Below, one piece after another: positions 4,532 through 28,315 of a stretch of 64,000 nucleotides of DNA. The translations under genes were made by a program, and so were the position numbers. The notes beneath the pieces are model-generated. The model ran no database searches, was not told the DNA's origin, and was given only the letters and a program-made list of their open reading frames with translations. The first letter of the stretch is position 1. Every line of letters starts with the position of its first letter. This DNA is from Candidatus Atabeyarchaeum deiterrae (GTDB lineage Archaea; Asgardarchaeota; Atabeyarchaeia; Atabeyarchaeales; Atabeyarchaeaceae), in the NCBI GenBank assembly GCA_037310415.1, contig CP147780.1, positions 1,568,001 to 1,632,000 on the forward strand, written 5' to 3'.

Positions 4532-5908
4532 TTATGCAGGGTTCAAAGCCCACGGTGGTGGTTGTATGTTGCCCGTCTTAAGGTTGTTCGGGTAGATCAG
4601 GGCATTCGACGAGATGGTAATCTTAGTCCCATTACTGAGCCATTCACAGAACAGTGTGTATCCATATGGGTATCCCGCTACTACGTCGTGAGATCTTGTG
4701 AAGGCAAGCTGTCCACTGATTCCTGTCATTGGACTGCCTTTGTTCACTGTTTCAAGTTGTGTAACAAGTTTGTCGTTCGTGAAAGACTGGGTCTTGTTGA
4801 TTGCGTCTGTCAGTAACTTGACTGCATCGTAGGTGCCGACCGCTGTGTACAGCGGGGAATGTCCGAATCTAGCCTTGAAAGCGTCCCAGAATGGTATCGT
4901 CAGCGAGGTCTTGTTGGTTCTATCTACCGCCTGCATTATGATCTCGTACCCACACTTTCCGCTAGAGCTTGCCCAATACGTGTCAAGTTGTGATTGCACA
5001 TCGATCCCAACGATGACGCATCCCGGTGTAGAGGCGTTATACTGTGTCATCATGTATATTCCACCCTGCGCCGAGATTACTGGGATCACCATCTGTGCTC
5101 CTGCAGATTGTATTGTGCTCCAATACCCCGCGAAGTCCGTGGAGGTTGCTGTAATTGGGTAGGCTATGTCTGCCACAGGTGCAGTGTCGAACCCATAGTA
5201 TCTCAGATAAGCTTTCAGGGCATTTGCCAAAGGTATCGCCCAGTCGAGGTCTTCCCTAAGAATAGCCCACTTGTGTATACTGACGTTCTTAACTGCAGAT
5301 AGATACGCTCTGAGATAGGCCAGTTCCGAGATTATCTGTCCACCGAGGCTGGTTGAGTTGATTGGCATGGTTCTGAAACAGTACTTGTATCTGCTGTATT
5401 GATCTATCACGACTTGGCAGAAGTAGTCCGTAGCTGCGCCTGTATGGATGAATAGAAGCTTCTTGTCCATCACCACTTCCAAGTATGCCTTCACCGATTC
5501 AGTTCTGAATCCGCCAATTATGTACTGAGCTTTGTCTTCCACTATTATCTTCTGGGCTGCAGTTACTCCTTTTGTTATGTCGAGTGCTGGTTCCGCTTCG
5601 TATGTGTCTTCCCTTATGATCCCGAGGTAGTATGTCGTTCCGTTGACATCTATGCCGCCTGCACTGTTAATTTCGTACGCCGCTAGCCAAGCCCCTTTCC
5701 AGGCTCCGTCTCCCTGTATCTCAGTCATCGGATCAAGAATCCCTATCTTGATAATACGGTCAAACGGGACACCTGCGGGTGCTCCTGGGGTTTCGTATGC
5801 TGGGTATCTTGGTATAGACATCCACCAGAGTCCAGCTCCGACACCCACAATGACTATTGCGAGTACGCCAACGGCTAGTGCTCTCTTTTGTCCTAAGGAC
5901 ATTGGCAT
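4532..5908 (-). CDS. ABC transporter substrate-binding protein (LivJ/K-type) with N-terminal membrane anchor
   Basis: N-terminal TM helix, IKIGIL..., A.LAA.EIN.AGGI, YDAV.LL..AI motifs; heads the liv operon. Confidence 0.88.
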   Translation of the reverse strand: MPMSLGQKRALAVGVLAIVIVGVGAGLWWMSIPRYPAYETPGAPAGVPFDRIIKIGILDPMTEIQGDGAWKGAWLAAYEINSAGGIDVNGTTYYLGIIREDTYEAEPALDITKGVTAAQKIIVEDKAQYIIGGFRTESVKAYLEVVMDKKLLFIHTGAATDYFCQVVIDQYSRYKYCFRTMPINSTSLGGQIISELAYLRAYLSAVKNVSIHKWAILREDLDWAIPLANALKAYLRYYGFDTAPVADIAYPITATSTDFAGYWSTIQSAGAQMVIPVISAQGGIYMMTQYNASTPGCVIVGIDVQSQLDTYWASSSGKCGYEIIMQAVDRTNKTSLTIPFWDAFKARFGHSPLYTAVGTYDAVKLLTDAINKTQSFTNDKLVTQLETVNKGSPMTGISGQLAFTRSHDVVAGYPYGYTLFCEWLSNGTKITISSNALIYPNNLKTGNIQPPPWALNPA

Positions 5909-6486
5909 TTTGTAGTCCTCTCTCCCTTTCTTCGGTTTCAATTATTACGTTGTCCCTCATTTTATTAGTAGGTTATATAAAACCCTTTCGACTTCCACTT
6001 GATGCATATTAATGCGTATTTGATTTTCATCGTTCTTCACCCCCATTTTCAACGCGAGTTGAAATGGAATTGGCGCGCAACTTCGAAATCGGCAGAATAC
6101 GGCATTCACCGCACCATGGTTGGAGCCACAGGGACCTGACCCAGGAATTTGAATGGGGGACCTCTCAACATCGATACTGGAATCAAGTACGCTGATCCCA
6201 TGCTCAGGAGCAATTTGTAACTGCCAACAAACTGTTAAGAATTACGAATGGTACAAGTTCAATGAAAAGAATAAGGGAATCTTACCAGCGTGTCTGGGGA
6301 TGATGGGAAGATGGCAGGGACACCAATGCCCTGGAAGAAAGATGCGACCTAGATTTGTACTGTGAAAGCGTTTCAAGATAAATAGTTGTGTTGCGATAGG
6401 GAACGTATTGGGGATCGCTGTTGAATGCGTTTCCCGCTAACTTATTGAAGCATAATAGGCTTCTTCAAGAGGGAAGTTGAGTTCGT

Positions 6487-20472: not shown

Positions 20473-20880
20473 TTATCCTTCTCTCTCAGACATTGCCATA
20501 AATATCCTATCATTCGTCCTGTTAAGCTCCAAGAATGTCATTCCAAGACTAGCTTCTTTTCTGATGAAGACTGAAAGAATCATGTCCCTGCCGCTTCTAG
20601 TAAGCACAATGTCCCCGGTACCCCCACTAACAACAACTCTCTTCAAGTCTCCCAATCCTAGGTTTCTCAGAACGTTGTCACCTATGTTGAGGAGAGCAGC
20701 AGACATCGCGGCGGCCAATGAAGCATCCGATAGTCTAGGTGACCAAGAAGATATGATTAGCCCATCACTCTTTACGAGTGTTGCGCCATCTATTCCCTTC
20801 GTCGCCGTGCATAGATCCATCAGCGTTCTTTTTAGTCTGTCCCTCAGACTTGAATCACTTGCGGCCAAAGTGGAATTCAC
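20473..20880 (-). CDS. Roadblock/LC7 (MglB-like) domain protein
   Basis: IDGATLVKSDGLIISS, AAAMSAALL.IG, LG.GDL..VVVSG..G, LG...LE. Confidence 0.9.
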   Translation of the reverse strand: MNSTLAASDSSLRDRLKRTLMDLCTATKGIDGATLVKSDGLIISSWSPRLSDASLAAAMSAALLNIGDNVLRNLGLGDLKRVVVSGGTGDIVLTRSGRDMILSVFIRKEASLGMTFLELNRTNDRIFMAMSEREG

Positions 20881-20921
20881 CTTCTTGCACTACGTTGACT
20901 TGACAGGCTGCTCATTCAAAA

Positions 20922-21509
20922 TCAGTTCGAGGTCATTGCCTTTTCTTTCATGAGCTTAAGAAGAGATAGTAGAGCTTCTTTGATCCCTTCTCCGGTCAGT
21001 CCTGATCCCTCAATGAACTTTACTGAATCAACTTTCATGAGGTTCTTCAAAGCGTCTGCTCTCATTGCATTGTCGAGATCCTGCTTGTTTGCCACCACAA
21101 CCATAGGGACGTCCACTCCAAGGAATCCTTTTACTTCCTCATAGATCGCTATTGCGTGTCCGACCTGACCGGGTGCCGTACTATCAACAATAAAAAGGAC
21201 GCCCTTGGCTCCCCTGCTTGTGGCTTCTCTCACGGGAGACATATGGATCTGTCCAGGGCTTCCCATCAGCATCACACGGGTAAAACTGCAACTATTCGAC
21301 TTGACCTCATTGTCATGTCGAAGCTCGTCAGCTCCATCCCACCAAATGTGCCCAAGATCAAATGCAAGCGTTGTCGTACTTCCATCTGGCAAAACCTTCT
21401 CTACGCTTGTGGCCTTAGTGTCCAAGAAGTGAACTAGGGTTGTCTTGCCTGCATGGTATGGTCCAGCGACGAAGATCTTGAAACACTTGTCCCTCTTGTC
21501 ATCAGTCAA
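20922..21509 (-). CDS. MglA/CvnD-like small GTPase
   Basis: GPYHAGKTT, TTTLAFDLG, GSPGQ, FIVDS, NKQD, SGLTGEG; ATGA overlap with the upstream roadblock gene. Confidence 0.9.
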   Translation of the reverse strand: MTDDKRDKCFKIFVAGPYHAGKTTLVHFLDTKATSVEKVLPDGSTTTLAFDLGHIWWDGADELRHDNEVKSNSCSFTRVMLMGSPGQIHMSPVREATSRGAKGVLFIVDSTAPGQVGHAIAIYEEVKGFLGVDVPMVVVANKQDLDNAMRADALKNLMKVDSVKFIEGSGLTGEGIKEALLSLLKLMKEKAMTSN

Positions 21510-21898
21510 TGAATCTCATCTCCATCAAGAAGTTCAGCTATTCTACCTGATGCTTTCTGCAAGGCCAAGTGGATCAGCCCCAGACCAACCTTCGAACGAG
21601 CTGTTCCAATTATGAGCTGGCGTCTGCCAGCGCTTCTGACCACAGTGACGCCGTCATCCGCCTGTATCGTGACTTGGGAGAGTTTCCCCTGCCTCAGCTC
21701 AACAACGGTTCGCTCGCCCATTGCAAGTATTGCTGCCGCCATCGCAGAGAGCAAACTTTCTTTTTCTGGGTCACTTATCGCTGAACATATCGGCAATCCG
21801 TCGTCACTGACAATGCATGTGGCATCCAGACTACCTGACTGAACTGTATCTTGAAGCACTTGATTTAACTTCATCTGTTTGTTAAGGCCCTCAGACAT
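21506..21898 (-). CDS. Roadblock/LC7 (MglB-like) domain protein
   Basis: CIVSDDGLPICS, LSAMAAAILAMGERTVVELRQGKLSQVTIQ, LGLIHL. Confidence 0.9.
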   Translation of the reverse strand: MSEGLNKQMKLNQVLQDTVQSGSLDATCIVSDDGLPICSAISDPEKESLLSAMAAAILAMGERTVVELRQGKLSQVTIQADDGVTVVRSAGRRQLIIGTARSKVGLGLIHLALQKASGRIAELLDGDEIH

Positions 21899-22183: not shown

Positions 22184-22930
22184 TTACGCGATTCCTTGCA
22201 CAGGCACAACTATTATTCCTTGGTCGGCGATTACCATTTCGAATTCCTTCATACTATGCTTGACGCCTCTCATTTTTCGTATAACCAGCTTTCTCTTGAA
22301 TTCTCTGCCTCTGGACTCAAGAGCCAAGAAGATAATACCAGTAGCCAGGAATTCCTCAACACCAAACCTACTAAGTGCAGCCGATCCTTCAACGGTCTCT
22401 GTTGTCATCAGCGTAGTGCAGTCAAGGTTTCTCAGAAAAGTGTTAAGTCGCATTAACGTTGCTCGCATGGTCTCTGGATGTGTGAACAAACCAATCCCGG
22501 GGATTGAATCCACAACCAACCGTTTTGCCGAGATAGCCTGTACTGCAGCAGCCAAATCGTCTATTATTCCGATGACCTTCTCTACAGAGCTATCAAGGGT
22601 CCATTTCTCGGGATCCTGCAGATCAAGACGACCTGTAATTGCGTCAAGAAGGACAAGTTTTCCGTCCTTTTCAAGTCTTAACAGGTCCCAACCGAAACGA
22701 GCGGCGTTTCTCCTAATTTCGTACAATGGTTCCTCGAAACTGGCATAGACTCCATGTTCTCCGTATTTGAGAGCGCCATTCACCAAGTACTGCAAACAGA
22801 AGATCGTTTTTCCACTTCCTGTTCCTCCCGTGACGAGGCTTCGGGAATTCTTCGGAAGGCCCCCCTCAAGAAGCTCGTCGAATCCTTGAATGCCGGTAGG
22901 AACTCTTTCATTTCGCTTCTCTACGTTCAT
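22184..22930 (-). CDS. Single-domain KaiC/RAD55-like ATPase (intact motifs)
   Basis: VPTGI.GFD.LL.GG, GGTGSGKT, SFEE, LVVDSI, GVEEFLA, KMRG; start taken as ATG 22930. Confidence 0.9.
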   Translation of the reverse strand: MNVEKRNERVPTGIQGFDELLEGGLPKNSRSLVTGGTGSGKTIFCLQYLVNGALKYGEHGVYASFEEPLYEIRRNAARFGWDLLRLEKDGKLVLLDAITGRLDLQDPEKWTLDSSVEKVIGIIDDLAAAVQAISAKRLVVDSIPGIGLFTHPETMRATLMRLNTFLRNLDCTTLMTTETVEGSAALSRFGVEEFLATGIIFLALESRGREFKRKLVIRKMRGVKHSMKEFEMVIADQGIIVVPVQGIA

Positions 22931-23318
22931 TTCTTCAACCCCAAGATTCTCTTCACTTCCACTTAAGTGTGCAATCAACTATGCGGCGAATAAGGTTCGA
23001 AGTGACATTACACAGGTCAAAACAGACCATGCTGTCTCCCCCACTTATTGAGATGAGCTGGTGAATTGATAAATCTGTTCTGCAATCATCATTAGCAGGC
23101 TGAATGCGTTAGGAAATTCGCAATCATTTAGCAACGCTTTTATCCAAACATCCCGTCGAGTATTGTGTGATGTGCACTACGGTAGCTTGTGGATGAGAAG
23201 GGGACCCGTAACAGTTTTCATTTCGATCGTGGCAGTGCTCCGAGTGAAAGTGAACCTCGAATCAATCTGGTTGTCGGAGGGAGCGCCTTTCAACAACTGC
23301 ATTGTGTCGTGATTTAGA

Positions 23319-23909
23319 ATGATATACGACCTATACGTGATCTCGAACCAGAATGGATGCTGCATCTATCACCAAGGTTTTGGAACAACCCTCGTAAACA
23401 GCGATCTAGTGGCTGGCTTGCTGACAGCCATGTTGTCATTCATGAAAGAGGTTCGAGGCGATGAAATGAAGGTCATGATTTCAGGAAACTCAAAATTCGT
23501 CTTCAATCAGTCCCCAGGTCTGATATTCGTAGCTCTGGTTGACCTCAACCCTGACGAGCACGATGTCTCAATGTTCCTTGAGGAAGTAAAGAAGCTATTC
23601 ACTGAGAAGTATCCGGAAAAGGACCAAGTTCAGCCTCTCAGTGGAGACGATCCTATCTCACAAGAGATCGCTCAGCTGCTCTTCACCTCAGATAAACCAA
23701 CTGGTAAAGCTAAGCCGCCGCTCGTACTCGGACGAAGATTGTCCAAGCTCATTGCGCCTGAATTGGCAGTTCAGAAGGATGCACTGACCAATCTCTATGG
23801 GAGAGTTGCTAAGTCAAAGGATTGCAGGGGAAAGGATCATGACTTAGAGGAGAAGTACAGAAAGGAGATTGAGAATCTGAACAGATTGATCGAAGAAACT
23901 CAAAATTAG
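23319..23909 (+). CDS. Longin-domain protein with helical C-terminal extension
   Basis: MIYDLYVIS...GCCIYHQ.F, DLVAGLLTAMLSFMKEV, LIFVALVD, FL.EVK..F.EKY: longin/sigma-adaptin-like pattern. Confidence 0.8.
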   Translation: MIYDLYVISNQNGCCIYHQGFGTTLVNSDLVAGLLTAMLSFMKEVRGDEMKVMISGNSKFVFNQSPGLIFVALVDLNPDEHDVSMFLEEVKKLFTEKYPEKDQVQPLSGDDPISQEIAQLLFTSDKPTGKAKPPLVLGRRLSKLIAPELAVQKDALTNLYGRVAKSKDCRGKDHDLEEKYRKEIENLNRLIEETQN

Positions 23910-23946
23910 ACAAGATGTTGAAATTCGAAAAGGAGAATATGCGGCC

Positions 23947-24543
23947 ATGCTGAAATCTGTCGAGATTCTGAACCTACTGGCAGCCAGACAGTTCGACGGT
24001 TGGATGAGACCTGGAATCAAAACCAAGCTTCGCCCCAAGTTGGGAAATACTATTGACCTTTATGCATCGCAGGAACGTGTCCCTGGAATGCTAGCATTAA
24101 GTCAATCCATGGGACCAGTCCTTTTTGAGGTTGGAAAGAAAGTAGCGTCCCACATTGCTGAGAGGACCATACCTCTACTTAAGGGAATATCGGGATACCA
24201 TCGATTCGCCGAATCTAACACAATCGAAGAGGCAAGACAATCGAGTGAATTCACTATATTCCAAATGATATACCAAGGAACCCTCACTGGGCTTCTGAAA
24301 CTAGTCGCATACGCGAAAAACAAGTTAATAGTCATTCAGGTTGAGGAGTGTGCTGATTGTACAGGAATGGTCAACTTGGGAAGGAGCATTTGCTACTTCG
24401 TAGGAGGCGAAATTACTGGCGCGGTTGAGGTTGCGCTGGGGAAGAGCCTGGGATACGTTGAGACAAAGTGCACGGTCAAAGGTGACCAGTGTTGCGAATT
24501 CAGATTGACAGTTCCGCAAGAGCAGGGAGGAGTATTCAGATGA
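23947..24543 (+). CDS. V4R domain protein (paralogue 1)
   Basis: RPKLG..IDL, LFEVGKK, ECADC, ICYF..G, ETKC...GD.CCEF. Confidence 0.88.
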   Translation: MLKSVEILNLLAARQFDGWMRPGIKTKLRPKLGNTIDLYASQERVPGMLALSQSMGPVLFEVGKKVASHIAERTIPLLKGISGYHRFAESNTIEEARQSSEFTIFQMIYQGTLTGLLKLVAYAKNKLIVIQVEECADCTGMVNLGRSICYFVGGEITGAVEVALGKSLGYVETKCTVKGDQCCEFRLTVPQEQGGVFR

Positions 24544-25193
24544 AAAGTTTAAGCACTCGTCATTCAGAAAGGGGTCCCACCTTGATCACTGAAAAACTTC
24601 TGGAAGCCATTGGTAGAATGCAGTATGAGAAATTCTTAGGTTCTGTTGACAAGTTCGAACCTCGCAAAAAACTTGGTGACAATGTTGACTTGTTATCTTT
24701 TCAGGAACGTGTGCTTGGTGTCTTGTCACTAAGTCAATCTATGGGACCCATCCTTTTCGAGGCAGGCAAGAAACCTGCACTATACATGGCCGAAGAGATG
24801 TGGCCTGAGGCTAGGAAGCAACCAAACTTTCACAGCATGGGCGACGCTAACGATCTGGACGAAGCAAGGCTTTCGGATGAGTTCACAGTTCTTCAGAGTT
24901 TTCTCGAAACGACCCGCCTCGGACTTCTTAGCCTAAGCGCGTTCGAGAAGAACAAGTCAATTCAATTTGAAGTTGATGAATGCGCGATATGCTATGGAGT
25001 TGGTAACTTGGGAAGAACCAAGTGTTATTTTCTTGGCGGAATCATCGCTGGTACTCTTGAAGGCACGCTCGGCAGAAGGGTGGGTTTTTCTGAATCAAAG
25101 TGTTGCGCAAATGGCGATCCCATCTGTGAATTCAGATATAGCCTATTAGGAACCAAGAACGATGAACGAAATGGTGAACAAGAAAGTGAATAA
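24540..25193 (+). CDS. V4R domain protein (paralogue 2)
   Basis: RKKLGDNVDL, LFEAGKK, ECAIC, KCYFLGG, ESKCC.NGDPICEF; ATG 24540 overlaps the previous stop (ATGA). Confidence 0.88.
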   Translation: MKSLSTRHSERGPTLITEKLLEAIGRMQYEKFLGSVDKFEPRKKLGDNVDLLSFQERVLGVLSLSQSMGPILFEAGKKPALYMAEEMWPEARKQPNFHSMGDANDLDEARLSDEFTVLQSFLETTRLGLLSLSAFEKNKSIQFEVDECAICYGVGNLGRTKCYFLGGIIAGTLEGTLGRRVGFSESKCCANGDPICEFRYSLLGTKNDERNGEQESE

Positions 25194-25207
25194 CTATTAA
25201 AGGTGTT

Positions 25208-25816
25208 ATGTTTTTGAGAGAGAAGGAGCTTTTCAAAGAACTGGCGAAAACGCAAGTCGGGCGAATATTGCACACCCCAGGATACAAGAGCAAGATACGC
25301 GGAAGACTTGGAGACTCGGTTGACTTGTTGACTTACCAGAGACCACTGCTTGGAGTTCTGATTCTGGCTGAGTCCATGAGTTCAGTGCTTTTCGAGGCTG
25401 GAAAGAGGACCGGAATTCAGCTTACTGAAGGCGGCATGCCGTTACTTCAGCAACTTCCAGATTACCGTGACTTTGCAGAAGCGAAGAATCTAGAGGAAGC
25501 AAAACTCTCAACCGGATATGCTGTTCTTAAAATGGCATTCGAATTATCTGGAACGGGTCTGATAGACCTGACCCAATTCAAGAAGGACAAACTTGCTGTT
25601 TATCAAGTCAATGAGTGCGCAGACTGTTATGGCATCAGGGACCTAGAAAAAAGCATTTGCCACTTTATTGGGGGCGTGATTGCTGGTGCACTTGAGTATG
25701 CACTAAAGAAAACGGTAGGGTTTGTTGAAACGATGTGCCAGGCTAAGGGTGACTCCTGTTGCGAATTCACATACACGATCAAACGAGTGGAGAGCAAGAA
25801 TGATCAGGTTAGCTGA
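25208..25816 (+). CDS. V4R domain protein (paralogue 3)
   Basis: RGRLGDSVDL, LFEAGKR, ECADC, ICHFIGG, ETMCQAKGDSCCEF. Confidence 0.88.
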   Translation: MFLREKELFKELAKTQVGRILHTPGYKSKIRGRLGDSVDLLTYQRPLLGVLILAESMSSVLFEAGKRTGIQLTEGGMPLLQQLPDYRDFAEAKNLEEAKLSTGYAVLKMAFELSGTGLIDLTQFKKDKLAVYQVNECADCYGIRDLEKSICHFIGGVIAGALEYALKKTVGFVETMCQAKGDSCCEFTYTIKRVESKNDQVS

Positions 25817-25884
25817 AGTACGATGAGAGATAGAAAACGTGAACAGAATAATTGAAGGAACAGAAGAAAGCATGAAACAAATAA

Positions 25885-26481
25885 GTGTCGAAAGGTTGGT
25901 GTAGCCTATTGAAGGCAGACGAAATCCTTGATGCGCTGGCCAGTAGGCAATTCAAGAGGCTGGTGAGCAACCCCAGCCCTCAAGCTAAGCTTAGGAAGAG
26001 GCTCGGTAACAACATTGACATGTGGGCATATCAGGAACGCGTAATCGGGATGCTCGCCCTAAGCAAATCCATGGGACCAGTCCTGTTTGAAGCGGGTAAA
26101 AAAGTCGGAAAGTCCCTCAGCAAGAAAGCAGTGTTAATGTTTAGGAAGTTGCCGAATTACAGGAGTTTCATCGAATGCAAGACACTGGAGGAAGCTCAGC
26201 GTTCAACTGAGTGGTCGATAGTTCAGGCGATGTATCAAATGACTGCCACTGGAATCATAAACATGGTCAAATACGAGAAAGGGAAACTCTTGGTCTTTCA
26301 AGTTGAGGAGTGTGTTTCCTGCTCAGGGCTTCCCAACCTCGGGGAAAGCGTGTGCTACTATCTCGGCGGACAGCTTTGTGGCGCAATTGAGATCATAATC
26401 GGAAAGAGTTTGGCCTTTGTTGAAACGAAGTGCCAAGCTAAGGGCGATACTTGTTGCGAGTTCAAGTACACAGTCCTATAA
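25885..26481 (+). CDS. V4R domain protein (paralogue 4)
   Basis: RKRLGNNIDM, LFEAGKK, ECVSC, VCYYLGG, ETKCQAKGDTCCEF; alternative start TTG 25909. Confidence 0.88.
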   Translation: MSKGWCSLLKADEILDALASRQFKRLVSNPSPQAKLRKRLGNNIDMWAYQERVIGMLALSKSMGPVLFEAGKKVGKSLSKKAVLMFRKLPNYRSFIECKTLEEAQRSTEWSIVQAMYQMTATGIINMVKYEKGKLLVFQVEECVSCSGLPNLGESVCYYLGGQLCGAIEIIIGKSLAFVETKCQAKGDTCCEFKYTVL

Positions 26482-26522: not shown

Positions 26523-27320
26523 TTGGACAGACTATCCACTGGCATAGATGGGCTTGACGAACTGATACAAGGCGGATTAATAAGTGGATCATCAACGCTA
26601 CTCTACGGACCGCCTGGGAACGGGAAACACCCATTTTGCCTCCAGTTTATCGCAGAAGGATTGAAAGTTGGTGACGGTGGAATAATGTTGGTCTCAAATG
26701 AGTCCGTCCAAGATGCAATAGAAAGCTTCGGAGAAGTAGGGTGTAGCTTGGATACTACAGTATTGGATCAGAAATACGATCTGAAGTTCGTTGACTGCTA
26801 CAGTTGGCGGATTGAAGAGGTTCCTTACCCAAAGTTGTATGGAAATGTGGTCAAGTCATCAATGGATATCAATCATGTTTCTTTGGCTATAGGCACGGCT
26901 GTCGATCAGATGAAGGCTGGCAAAAGAATTCGAGTCACAGTAGACCTGTTTTCCCCGCTCCTAATGGTTGCTCCCCCACAGGCTGTCTATAGACTTGGTG
27001 AACTTCTGACAGCCGAACTGAAGAAGAAAGGCGCAACCTCGATATTTATGTTGACGGAGGGAATGCATGACCAGCAGACGATAACGTCTCTTCAACAGTT
27101 GATCGACAATGTGGTGCTCTTTAGAAACTCTGAGAAGGAAGGGGTTCTCATAAAGGAAGTCTGCGTGAGCAAAATGAAGCGAACAGTCTTCGAATCGAGA
27201 TGGCTGCCGATATTCAGGGATACAAAGACAGGGGGGCTAAGGATCGCGCAGGAAAGTCAGAAGACGGACTTGTTCAGTAGCGGTGAGAGATACTTGAAAA
27301 CAGGCAGACTTTCTACCTGA
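26523..27320 (+). CDS. KaiC/RAD55-like ATPase with degenerate motifs
   Basis: LSTGIDGLDELI.GG, GPPGNGKH, FVDCYSW, VTVDLFS, LQQLIDNVV, KMKRT. Confidence 0.85.
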   Translation: MDRLSTGIDGLDELIQGGLISGSSTLLYGPPGNGKHPFCLQFIAEGLKVGDGGIMLVSNESVQDAIESFGEVGCSLDTTVLDQKYDLKFVDCYSWRIEEVPYPKLYGNVVKSSMDINHVSLAIGTAVDQMKAGKRIRVTVDLFSPLLMVAPPQAVYRLGELLTAELKKKGATSIFMLTEGMHDQQTITSLQQLIDNVVLFRNSEKEGVLIKEVCVSKMKRTVFESRWLPIFRDTKTGGLRIAQESQKTDLFSSGERYLKTGRLST

Positions 27321-27563: not shown

Positions 27564-28315
27564 GTGAAGGTCGTATATCACGAAGGATACCGGGAAGTCT
27601 ATGCTGACGATCCTGCTTCTGCTCCTGGCCGAATGGAATCCATACTTGAGGCACTAGGTGACTCGTTCCCAATCGTTGAGCCGGTGGAGGCTGGCGAGGA
27701 CGCATTATTACTTGTTCATACTGCAGGTCACTTGCGTTTCGTGAAGGGGCTAGGGATTGTAGACAGGATAGCTAAACTTGCTGTTGGTGGGGCATTAACT
27801 GCGGCTGAGCTCGCAATGAAAGGCGAGGCGGCATTCGCTCTCATTAGACCGCCAGGGCATCACGCCAGCGCCGATTCCTGTTGGGGATTCTGCTATTTCA
27901 ACAACGTGGCGATTGCCATCGAGAAACTTCTGAGAGAGGGACAAATAGAGAAAGCAGTGATACTGGACTTCGACTTACACTTTGGCGATGGAACTAGCAA
28001 TATCTTCACAGGGAAATCAGAGGTAGCGTATTACCATGCTCCGCGTACCAACACTGCAGAATCCATCCGAGGCTATCTCACAGAAGTCGGAGAGCGCGAC
28101 ATAATCGCTGTATCTGCCGGATTCGATAGGCACGTGGAGGATGGGGCGGAACGCTGAGAACAGAGGACTACAAGAGAATAGGAGAAATAGTAAGCGAATA
28201 CGCCAAGGAGAACACGGAAGGAAGACAGTTCGCAGCACTTGAAGGAGGGTATAATCACAAGGTTCTTGGCGTTAACGTCAAAACGTTTATTGAAGGGATG
28301 GAAAAAGGACAATAG
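27564..28315 (+). pseudogene. Histone deacetylase/AcuC-family protein interrupted by a single-base frameshift near 28142
   Basis: RPPGHHA, GFCYFNN, LDFDLHFGDGT, SAGFD up to a stop at 28157; the -1 frame continues WGGTLRTEDY...LEGGYNH...GQ* to TAG 28313-28315. Could be an assembly error. Confidence 0.8.

Follow-up and report, generated by a model that had tools for sequence, protein, structure and literature searches.

A gene cluster encoding one longin-fold protein, four tandem V4R-domain proteins and two KaiC-like proteins was analyzed in Candidatus Atabeyarchaeum deiterrae. The window, meaning the whole 64,000-nucleotide stretch of DNA under analysis, spans G000:C1:1568001-1632000 of a closed, 2,756,679-bp genome. 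The Atabeyarchaeia are Asgard archaea of soil and wetland; the text of the paper on them refers to longin and Roadblock genes and makes no mention of V4R, TRAPP or KaiC (PMC11291895). An initial annotation of the window had proposed that the longin and the V4R proteins form a parts list like that of the eukaryotic TRAPP core and act on a neighboring GTPase. As an alternative, it had suggested that the V4R proteins are zinc-containing sensors that feed a KaiC-like ATPase.

The longin gene, V4R1 through V4R4 and a degenerate KaiC-like gene form one tight plus-strand operon, and an intact KaiC gene faces it (Table 1). From the longin gene onward, successive spacings are 37, -4, 14, approximately 92 and 41 nucleotides, which is consistent with a single operon that runs on into the KaiC-like gene. 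For V4R2, the most likely start is the ATG at 24540; it forms an ATGA overlap with the stop codon of V4R1 and is preceded by GGAGGAG. The most likely start of V4R4 is the TTG at 25909, in agreement with its orthologues. Related loci were compared in G001, a relative from the family of the window with a 2,808,651-bp contig, and in L014, L015, L016 and L028; a distant locus, L031/L032, comes from an archaeal metagenome-assembled genome of approximately 0.5 Mb.

Table 1. Positions of the locus genes and of small GTPase genes in the same genome (window coordinates, except in the last row).
Feature	Position	Strand	Basis or remark
Roadblock-GTPase-Roadblock genes	20473-21898	-	GTPase 20922-21509; 4-nt gene overlap at 21506-21509
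Intact single-domain KaiC-like ATPase	22184-22978	-	Pfam KaiC; divergent from longin operon
Divergent intergenic region, 340 bp	22979-23318	.	presumed promoters of KaiC and longin operon, as read from the sequence
Longin-fold protein, 196 aa	23319-23909	+	AlphaFold2 (AF2) model topology, structure matches
V4R1 (group A')	23947-24543	+	Pfam V4R E 2.5e-11
V4R2 (group B)	24540-25193 (open frame from 24489)	+	Pfam V4R E 3.6e-13
V4R3 (group C)	25208-25816	+	Pfam V4R E 5.4e-12
V4R4 (group A), core paralogue	25909-26481 (open frame from 25885)	+	Pfam V4R E 4.9e-13
Degenerate KaiC-like protein, DUF7504 type, last operon gene	26523-27320	+	Pfam KaiC, DUF7504
RagA-like GTPases of the window genome	G000 2115571-2116098 and 2107573-2108085

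All four V4R proteins scored above the gathering cut-off of Pfam V4R (PF02830), with 43.9-49.8 bits against a cut-off of 31 (E-values 2.5e-11 to 3.6e-13). They are approximately 190-217 amino acids (aa) long and share 41-53% identity with one another, and orthologues of V4R4 are 59-78% identical. The shared motifs and divergent middle described in the initial annotation were borne out: R..LG...D, the Q of QER/QRP, SM..LFE.GK, EC-x2-C, C(Y/H)(F/Y)..G and E..C...GD..CEF are invariant in alignment A1, and conservation is lowest in the middle region. Across 38 sequences, C157, E180, C183 and C191 (numbered as in V4R4) are fully or almost fully conserved. A Cys-x26-Cys-x8-Cys pattern is present, with a Glu three residues ahead of the second Cys.

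The AF2 model of V4R4 (38 sequences, predicted local distance difference test score [pLDDT] 90) adopts the same two-layer alpha/beta fold as V4R sensor domains of known structure. Its best structural matches (VIA) were the phenol sensors MopR, PoxR and DmpR (5kbe, 5fru, 6iy8), with which it has Pfam V4R in common, at Z 14.1-15.0 and a root-mean-square deviation (rmsd) of 2.4 Å over 141 residues. MJ1460 followed at Z 12.1 (VIA), Thor-TRAPPC3 (7yh3) at Z 11.8 and rmsd 3.5 Å, and human Bet3 at Z 11.4; rmsd for Bet3 and Thor-TRAPPC3 was 3.3-3.6 Å. As judged from the model, the Bet3-like fold holds at the level of the superfamily, and the resemblance is weaker than that to sensor V4R domains. Profile searches pointed the same way. 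MJ1460, MopR and PoxR were the sole matches among PDB sequences, and the only NCBIfam family that matched all four proteins was MsvR, through its V4R part (E 1e-10 to 1e-13). The Pfam TRAPP profile (PF04051) had zero matches across the whole genome of the window at E<=1, although it found two copies per genome in all 43 genomes of a different Asgard family (probably Thorarchaeia). Alignment by hhalign of the V4R proteins with the PF04051-positive Asgard proteins reached a probability of 24%, over the final 61 columns. By both sequence and structure, the four proteins sit with the sensor V4Rs MopR, PoxR, MJ1460 and MsvR and not with Bet3 or Thor-TRAPPC3, a grouping that the initial annotation had itself named as telling against its TRAPP-like proposal.

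Two Pfam-TRAPP (TRAPPC3-like) genes were found in one minus-strand cluster of L040 (G007:C81:49000-62000), which is probably from Thorarchaeia. This cluster is without KaiC and holds winged helix-turn-helix (wHTH) regulators and a third gene that matches V4R. Three further genes (167, 183 and 324 aa) lie between the TRAPPC3-like genes, and none of the three had similarity to our longin profile, which is itself narrow.

The number of V4R genes varies among the related loci: 3 in G001, 2 in L014, 4 in L015, 1 in L016 and 3 in L028 (plus fragments). A maximum-likelihood tree of the array proteins resolved five groups, A, A', B, C and D. Group A (V4R4 type) occurs in all loci and is the first gene after the longin everywhere but in the window. 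Group A', represented by V4R1, is sister to A (support 97/96), and its sole close relative is P0035 at 93% identity; V4R1 is a recent, genus-level duplicate of V4R4. V4R2 and V4R3 have orthologues in G001 and L015, and group D is absent from the window. When double-V4R proteins were added to the tree, all the array paralogues formed one lineage-specific clade (99/98), which means that they do not correspond one by one to Bet3, Trs31 and Trs33. Together with the variable counts, this indicates that the array is a young, fluid expansion rather than a fixed set of four subunits, and the match in number with TRAPP that the initial annotation had remarked on is not conserved among relatives. In L016, which has a single V4R gene, the gene is followed at L016:8570-9297 by frameshifted group-B remnants in which the N-terminal motifs are intact and the frame is then lost; these remnants point to ongoing decay and turnover of the array.

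The first gene of the operon does encode a longin-fold protein, in line with the initial annotation. Residues 1-125 form the longin domain, a DDPIS linker follows, and a helical hairpin (137-195) ends the protein. Pfam longin models scored below threshold (Fuz_longin_1, E 2.5e-4 and 21.7 bits with a cut-off of 26.1; Longin, 16.4 bits with a cut-off of 26.2). The AF2 model (15 sequences, pLDDT 70) has the beta-beta-alpha-beta-beta-beta-alpha-alpha order of the longin topology and matched solved longins at Z 12-15.6. The top match (VIA) was TRAPPC4 (2j3t_D; Z 15.6, rmsd 2.3 Å, 123 residues). TRAPPC4/Trs23 structures scored Z 15.6, 14.2 and 14.0, and other longins scored 13.4 or lower, with VAMP7, sigma-adaptins, COPI zeta, Mon1/Ccz1 and Sec22 at Z 12-13.4. 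The best Foldseek match was Bet5 (2j3t_C, E 1.3e-5). Orthologues of the longin (n = 14) are 48-67% identical. Longin-V4R adjacency is conserved within Atabeyarchaeia: the window, G001, L014, L015 and L028 all keep it, as do probably further contigs, given that orthologues of V4R4 and of the longin were matched on contigs of equal length. In G001, the order is longin, three V4R genes and degenerate KaiC; L016 is without a longin. The set shares two folds with TRAPP but is set apart from it by the membership tests. The part of the initial proposal that stands is that both folds are present and linked; among the parts that do not is a close kinship of the V4R proteins with Bet3, as they are nearer to sensors and come from a genome null for PF04051.

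The intact KaiC matched Pfam KaiC (PF06745) at E 3.9e-71 and 239.5 bits, and its Walker A (GGTGSGKT), catalytic EE pair and Walker B (RLVVDS) are all in place. Its gene diverges from the operon in the window and in L014, L015 and L028, and likewise at the distant L031/L032 locus. The degenerate KaiC matched Pfam KaiC at E 6.8e-27 (94.8 bits) and DUF7504 at E 2.6e-11 (44.8 bits). Its Walker A is GPPGNGKH in the window and GPPG(N/S)(G/W/L)KH across five orthologues, each of which has NES in place of the catalytic EE pair; from these motifs the protein is predicted to be an inactivated ATPase. The degenerate gene lies downstream of V4R genes in the window, G001, L014, L015, L016, L028 and L031/L032. 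The L031/L032 locus consists of a minus-strand KaiC gene and, on the other side, genes for a 107-aa protein, a V4R protein, a degenerate KaiC and a V4R-V4R fusion, so that a fused double-V4R protein adjoins the inactive KaiC there; the first module of that fusion is a weakly supported sister of the array clade. The 107-aa protein was considered as a longin and rejected: hhalign probability was 0.3%, and its Atlas structure neighbors were small membrane sensor segments. Downstream of the degenerate KaiC in the window, the plus-strand open reading frame (ORF) 27564-28157 has motifs like those of histone deacetylases (GHHA, FCYFNN, DFDLHFGDGT, found by eye). At 197 aa it is short for a histone deacetylase and may be truncated or interrupted.

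The association of V4R with KaiC extends beyond this operon. The genome of the window has 26 KaiC-like ORFs. At 4 of 7 V4R loci, V4R is either fused with one of these or neighbors it: one locus encodes a KaiC-V4R fusion, at another a V4R gene overlaps a KaiC/DUF7504 gene, a third is a convergent pair, and the fourth is the window array. Chance adjacency is roughly estimated at 2.6% per locus. The fusion is a 419-aa protein at L037:3204-4463 (G000:C1:1708203-1709462), with KaiC at residues 5-237 and V4R at 365-414. Its gene is convergent with a hemerythrin gene, a possible link to oxygen or redox. At L038:3062-4413 and 4559-6040 (G000:C1 about 2600061-2603040), a 192-aa XylR_N plus V4R gene overlaps a KaiC/DUF7504 gene, and this pair is adjoined by a gene for a DNA topoisomerase IB of the eukaryotic type (Topoisom_I_N and Topoisom_I). 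The constant partners of the longin/V4R set are the KaiC-like ATPases and not a GTPase.

The GTPase named as the target in the initial annotation belongs to the minus-strand Roadblock-GTPase-Roadblock unit beside the intact KaiC. In none of the related loci examined does this unit lie beside the orthologous KaiC; its position in the window is therefore a lineage-specific junction, and the proposal of this GTPase as the target was not upheld. It is also excluded as a conserved partner because L015 has a RagA-like GTPase to which it is not orthologous; orthologues of the L015 protein are approximately 0.5 Mb away in the window genome. A RagA/Arf-like GTPase gene is convergent to the degenerate KaiC in L015, L016 and L028. 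The window genome has at least 29 Ras-family matches, so occasional adjacency of a GTPase gene is unsurprising. In the place of the Roadblock-GTPase-Roadblock unit, relatives have a longin-wHTH gene, the window-genome orthologue of which is approximately 1 Mb away. The encoded protein of approximately 269 aa (L015:5291-6100, L013:11695-12510, and L033 at G000:C1:2635032-2635811) is conserved, shows a faint longin signal at its N terminus and a wHTH at its C terminus, and is a candidate transcriptional output.

The subfamily of full-length array V4R proteins is narrow, with 6 representatives at E<=1e-30 compared to 698 at E<=1e-3, and among 201 Asgard genomes the stand-alone array was found in the family of the window only. 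The nearest relatives in other Asgard families are thioredoxin-V4R-V4R (Trx-V4R-V4R) proteins of approximately 500-550 aa (60-113 bits), the thioredoxin-like domain of which has a CxxC motif. Like the window V4R proteins they contain full-length modules including the N-terminal part; unlike them, they are single chains with a thioredoxin-like domain, and their two modules were duplicated independently of the array. The array clade lies outside both modules, which rules out descent of the array from a split Trx-V4R-V4R gene. These proteins (e.g., L045:1180-2745 and L051:1159-2616) occur in at least 8 of the sampled Asgard families, as a rule with a single copy in each genome, and appear to be uncharacterized. 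Among 90 longer representatives, the domains found included thioredoxin-like (15), Roadblock (4), SpoIIE (3), GGDEF (2), KaiC (1), helix-turn-helix (HTH), sigma-54 and histidine kinase. This repertoire of fusion partners is that of a sensor input domain. A search with alignment A3 for longer fused relatives returned none, which is weak evidence. Two V4R-Roadblock/LC7 fusions were seen on other archaeal contigs (L054:2580-4028, 482 aa; L056:5001-6161, 386 aa), and their Roadblock parts resemble the two Roadblock proteins of the window (E 1e-10 to 1e-13).

Taken together, these data indicate, with a probability of about 60%, that the locus is a KaiC-centered signaling operon in which an array of redox- or ligand-sensing V4R proteins and a longin adaptor feed KaiC. 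The sensor alternative of the initial annotation thus fits the evidence better than its TRAPP reading. In such a pathway, the V4R proteins would be sensor-type modules that most likely pair as homodimers or heterodimers. Their input would be thiol or redox state, which is somewhat favored, or a small hydrophobic ligand. The signal would then pass to the assembly of KaiC and inactive KaiC, the direction being our presumption. The longin may serve as a docking platform, possibly toward a small GTPase or toward the longin-wHTH protein that relatives encode in the cluster. The V4R proteins may contact the longin, and the V4R proteins or the longin may contact KaiC.

Known systems resemble the operon in part. 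The metal site of MopR (C155/E178/C181/C189) aligns with C157/E180/C183/C191 of the window V4R. MopR, PoxR and DmpR have V4R fused to a sigma-54 AAA+ activator and bind phenols, whereas the window V4R proteins stand alone, have KaiC-like proteins and a longin as partners, and have in addition an N-terminal helix, a second Cys motif (CxxC) and the R..LG..D loop, which is invariant; the sequences are no more than 12-17% identical. MsvR is a redox-sensing V4R transcription factor of methanogens. The cysteines of MaMsvR that control redox-dependent DNA binding (C206/C232/C240) have the same spacing as C157-C183-C191, and the CX2C motif of MthMsvR has its counterpart in EC-x2-C, which in V4R4 is CX2CX3P (PMC3729527). 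However, MsvR has an N-terminal HTH and binds DNA, whereas the window proteins are without a DNA-binding domain and score far under the 220-bit equivalog cut-off. As in the eukaryotic TRAPP core (Bet3/Trs31/Trs33 plus Bet5/Trs23), longin and Bet3/V4R folds are encoded together; in contrast to it, the operon has only one longin gene, KaiC-like proteins as constant partners and a variable V4R count. KaiC-centered signal-transduction modules of archaea were reportedly described by Makarova, Galperin and Koonin in mBio in 2017 (8:e01959-17, as cited in PMC5847659). In such modules, as at the present locus, an intact KaiC is paired with an inactivated one and with genes for sensors or adaptors, and many KaiC paralogues occur per genome. 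The window operon is most likely a version of this module, confined among the sampled Asgard genomes to the Atabeyarchaeia family. In the literature searched, we found no KaiC module combined with a longin and an expanded V4R array.

Several observations weigh against a KaiC-centered sensor operon. The longin model is mildly closer to TRAPP longins than to others, a likeness that the signaling reading does not require; the preference is mild because the top match alone is more than 1 Z unit clear of the rest. Small GTPase genes lie near 4 of 6 Atabeyarchaeia loci, in differing families and positions, and hint at a GTPase output. In MopR, the equivalent Cys/Glu site binds zinc in a structural role. 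The sensed signal is itself only suggested, by motifs and fusion partners, and the related loci are kin, so that their agreement overstates their independence.

It is also conceivable, although unlikely, that the V4R proteins are independent sensors that are merely co-regulated, each binding its own small molecule with no hetero-oligomer or longin contact, and with output through transcription factors encoded elsewhere. The middle region differs between paralogue groups and is conserved among the orthologues of each group, copy number is freely variable, and MopR, PoxR and Thor-TRAPPC3 are homodimers (PMC10933270), all as such sensors would have it. However, V4R1 and V4R2 are translationally coupled, V4R-V4R fusions show two different modules acting together, none of the related loci has lost the inactive KaiC, and V4R is also found fused to KaiC and to Roadblock.

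A TRAPP-like complex would have V4R heterodimers flanking a longin dimer as Bet3-fold pairs flank Bet5/Trs23, with the assembly acting on a small GTPase, either as its exchange factor or as a platform for it, and with KaiC as an added regulator. We regard this as quite unlikely, even though TRAPPC4/Trs23 and Bet5 are the structures closest to the longin model, the V4R fold is that of the Bet3 superfamily (Z 11.4-11.8), and RagA/Arf-like GTPases occur near the inactive KaiC in L015, L016 and L028. Thor-TRAPPC3 (7yh2, 7yh3) is a dimer that holds zinc through cysteines, and a longin-TRAPPC3 fusion is reported from Heimdall archaea (Tran et al. 2024, PMC10933270). This fusion and the V4R-Roadblock fusions make a physical link between V4R and longin plausible, and the retained adjacency of the two genes agrees with it. 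Against these points stand the PF04051 null result in the genome and the hhalign probability of 24%, V4R copies that range from 1 to 4 and whose paralogues form a single recent clade, and the retention of V4R and inactive KaiC without a longin in L016 and L031/L032. Furthermore, the window GTPase is neither conserved at the locus nor orthologous to that of the relatives, and a single longin gene in the operon supplies no heterodimer pair. The notion that the V4R proteins are small-molecule carriers or enzymes, for example in ATC-hydrolase-like C-S cleavage or cofactor handling, is very improbable: below-threshold Pfam ATC_hydrolase matches (V4R2, E 0.027; V4R4, E 0.004) and the speculation of Tran et al. 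(PMC10933270) on ligand transport by Thor-TRAPPC3 speak for it, but the neighborhood is without conserved metabolic genes, and neighbors and fusion partners are signaling proteins.

Asgard genomes have many longin, Roadblock, V4R/TRAPPC3 and small-GTPase genes, and in the cultured Lokiarchaeon these rarely share operons (Tran et al. 2024, PMC10933270), which has kept operons from revealing the partners of their products. At the locus described here, a TRAPPC4-like longin and proteins of the Bet3 superfamily are joined in a conserved operon. It offers a small, expressible set of proteins that bears on whether longins bind V4R/Bet3 folds in archaea and on whether V4R proteins provide redox or ligand input to KaiC hubs. 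Because its four copies came from recent duplication, it is also a warning against reading eukaryote-like parts lists by number. If, improbable as we hold it to be, the longin and V4R proteins do form a hetero-oligomer of TRAPP-core architecture that controls a GTPase under a KaiC and redox or ligand signal, it would represent a living prokaryotic partnership of longin and Bet3 folds from which TRAPP could derive.

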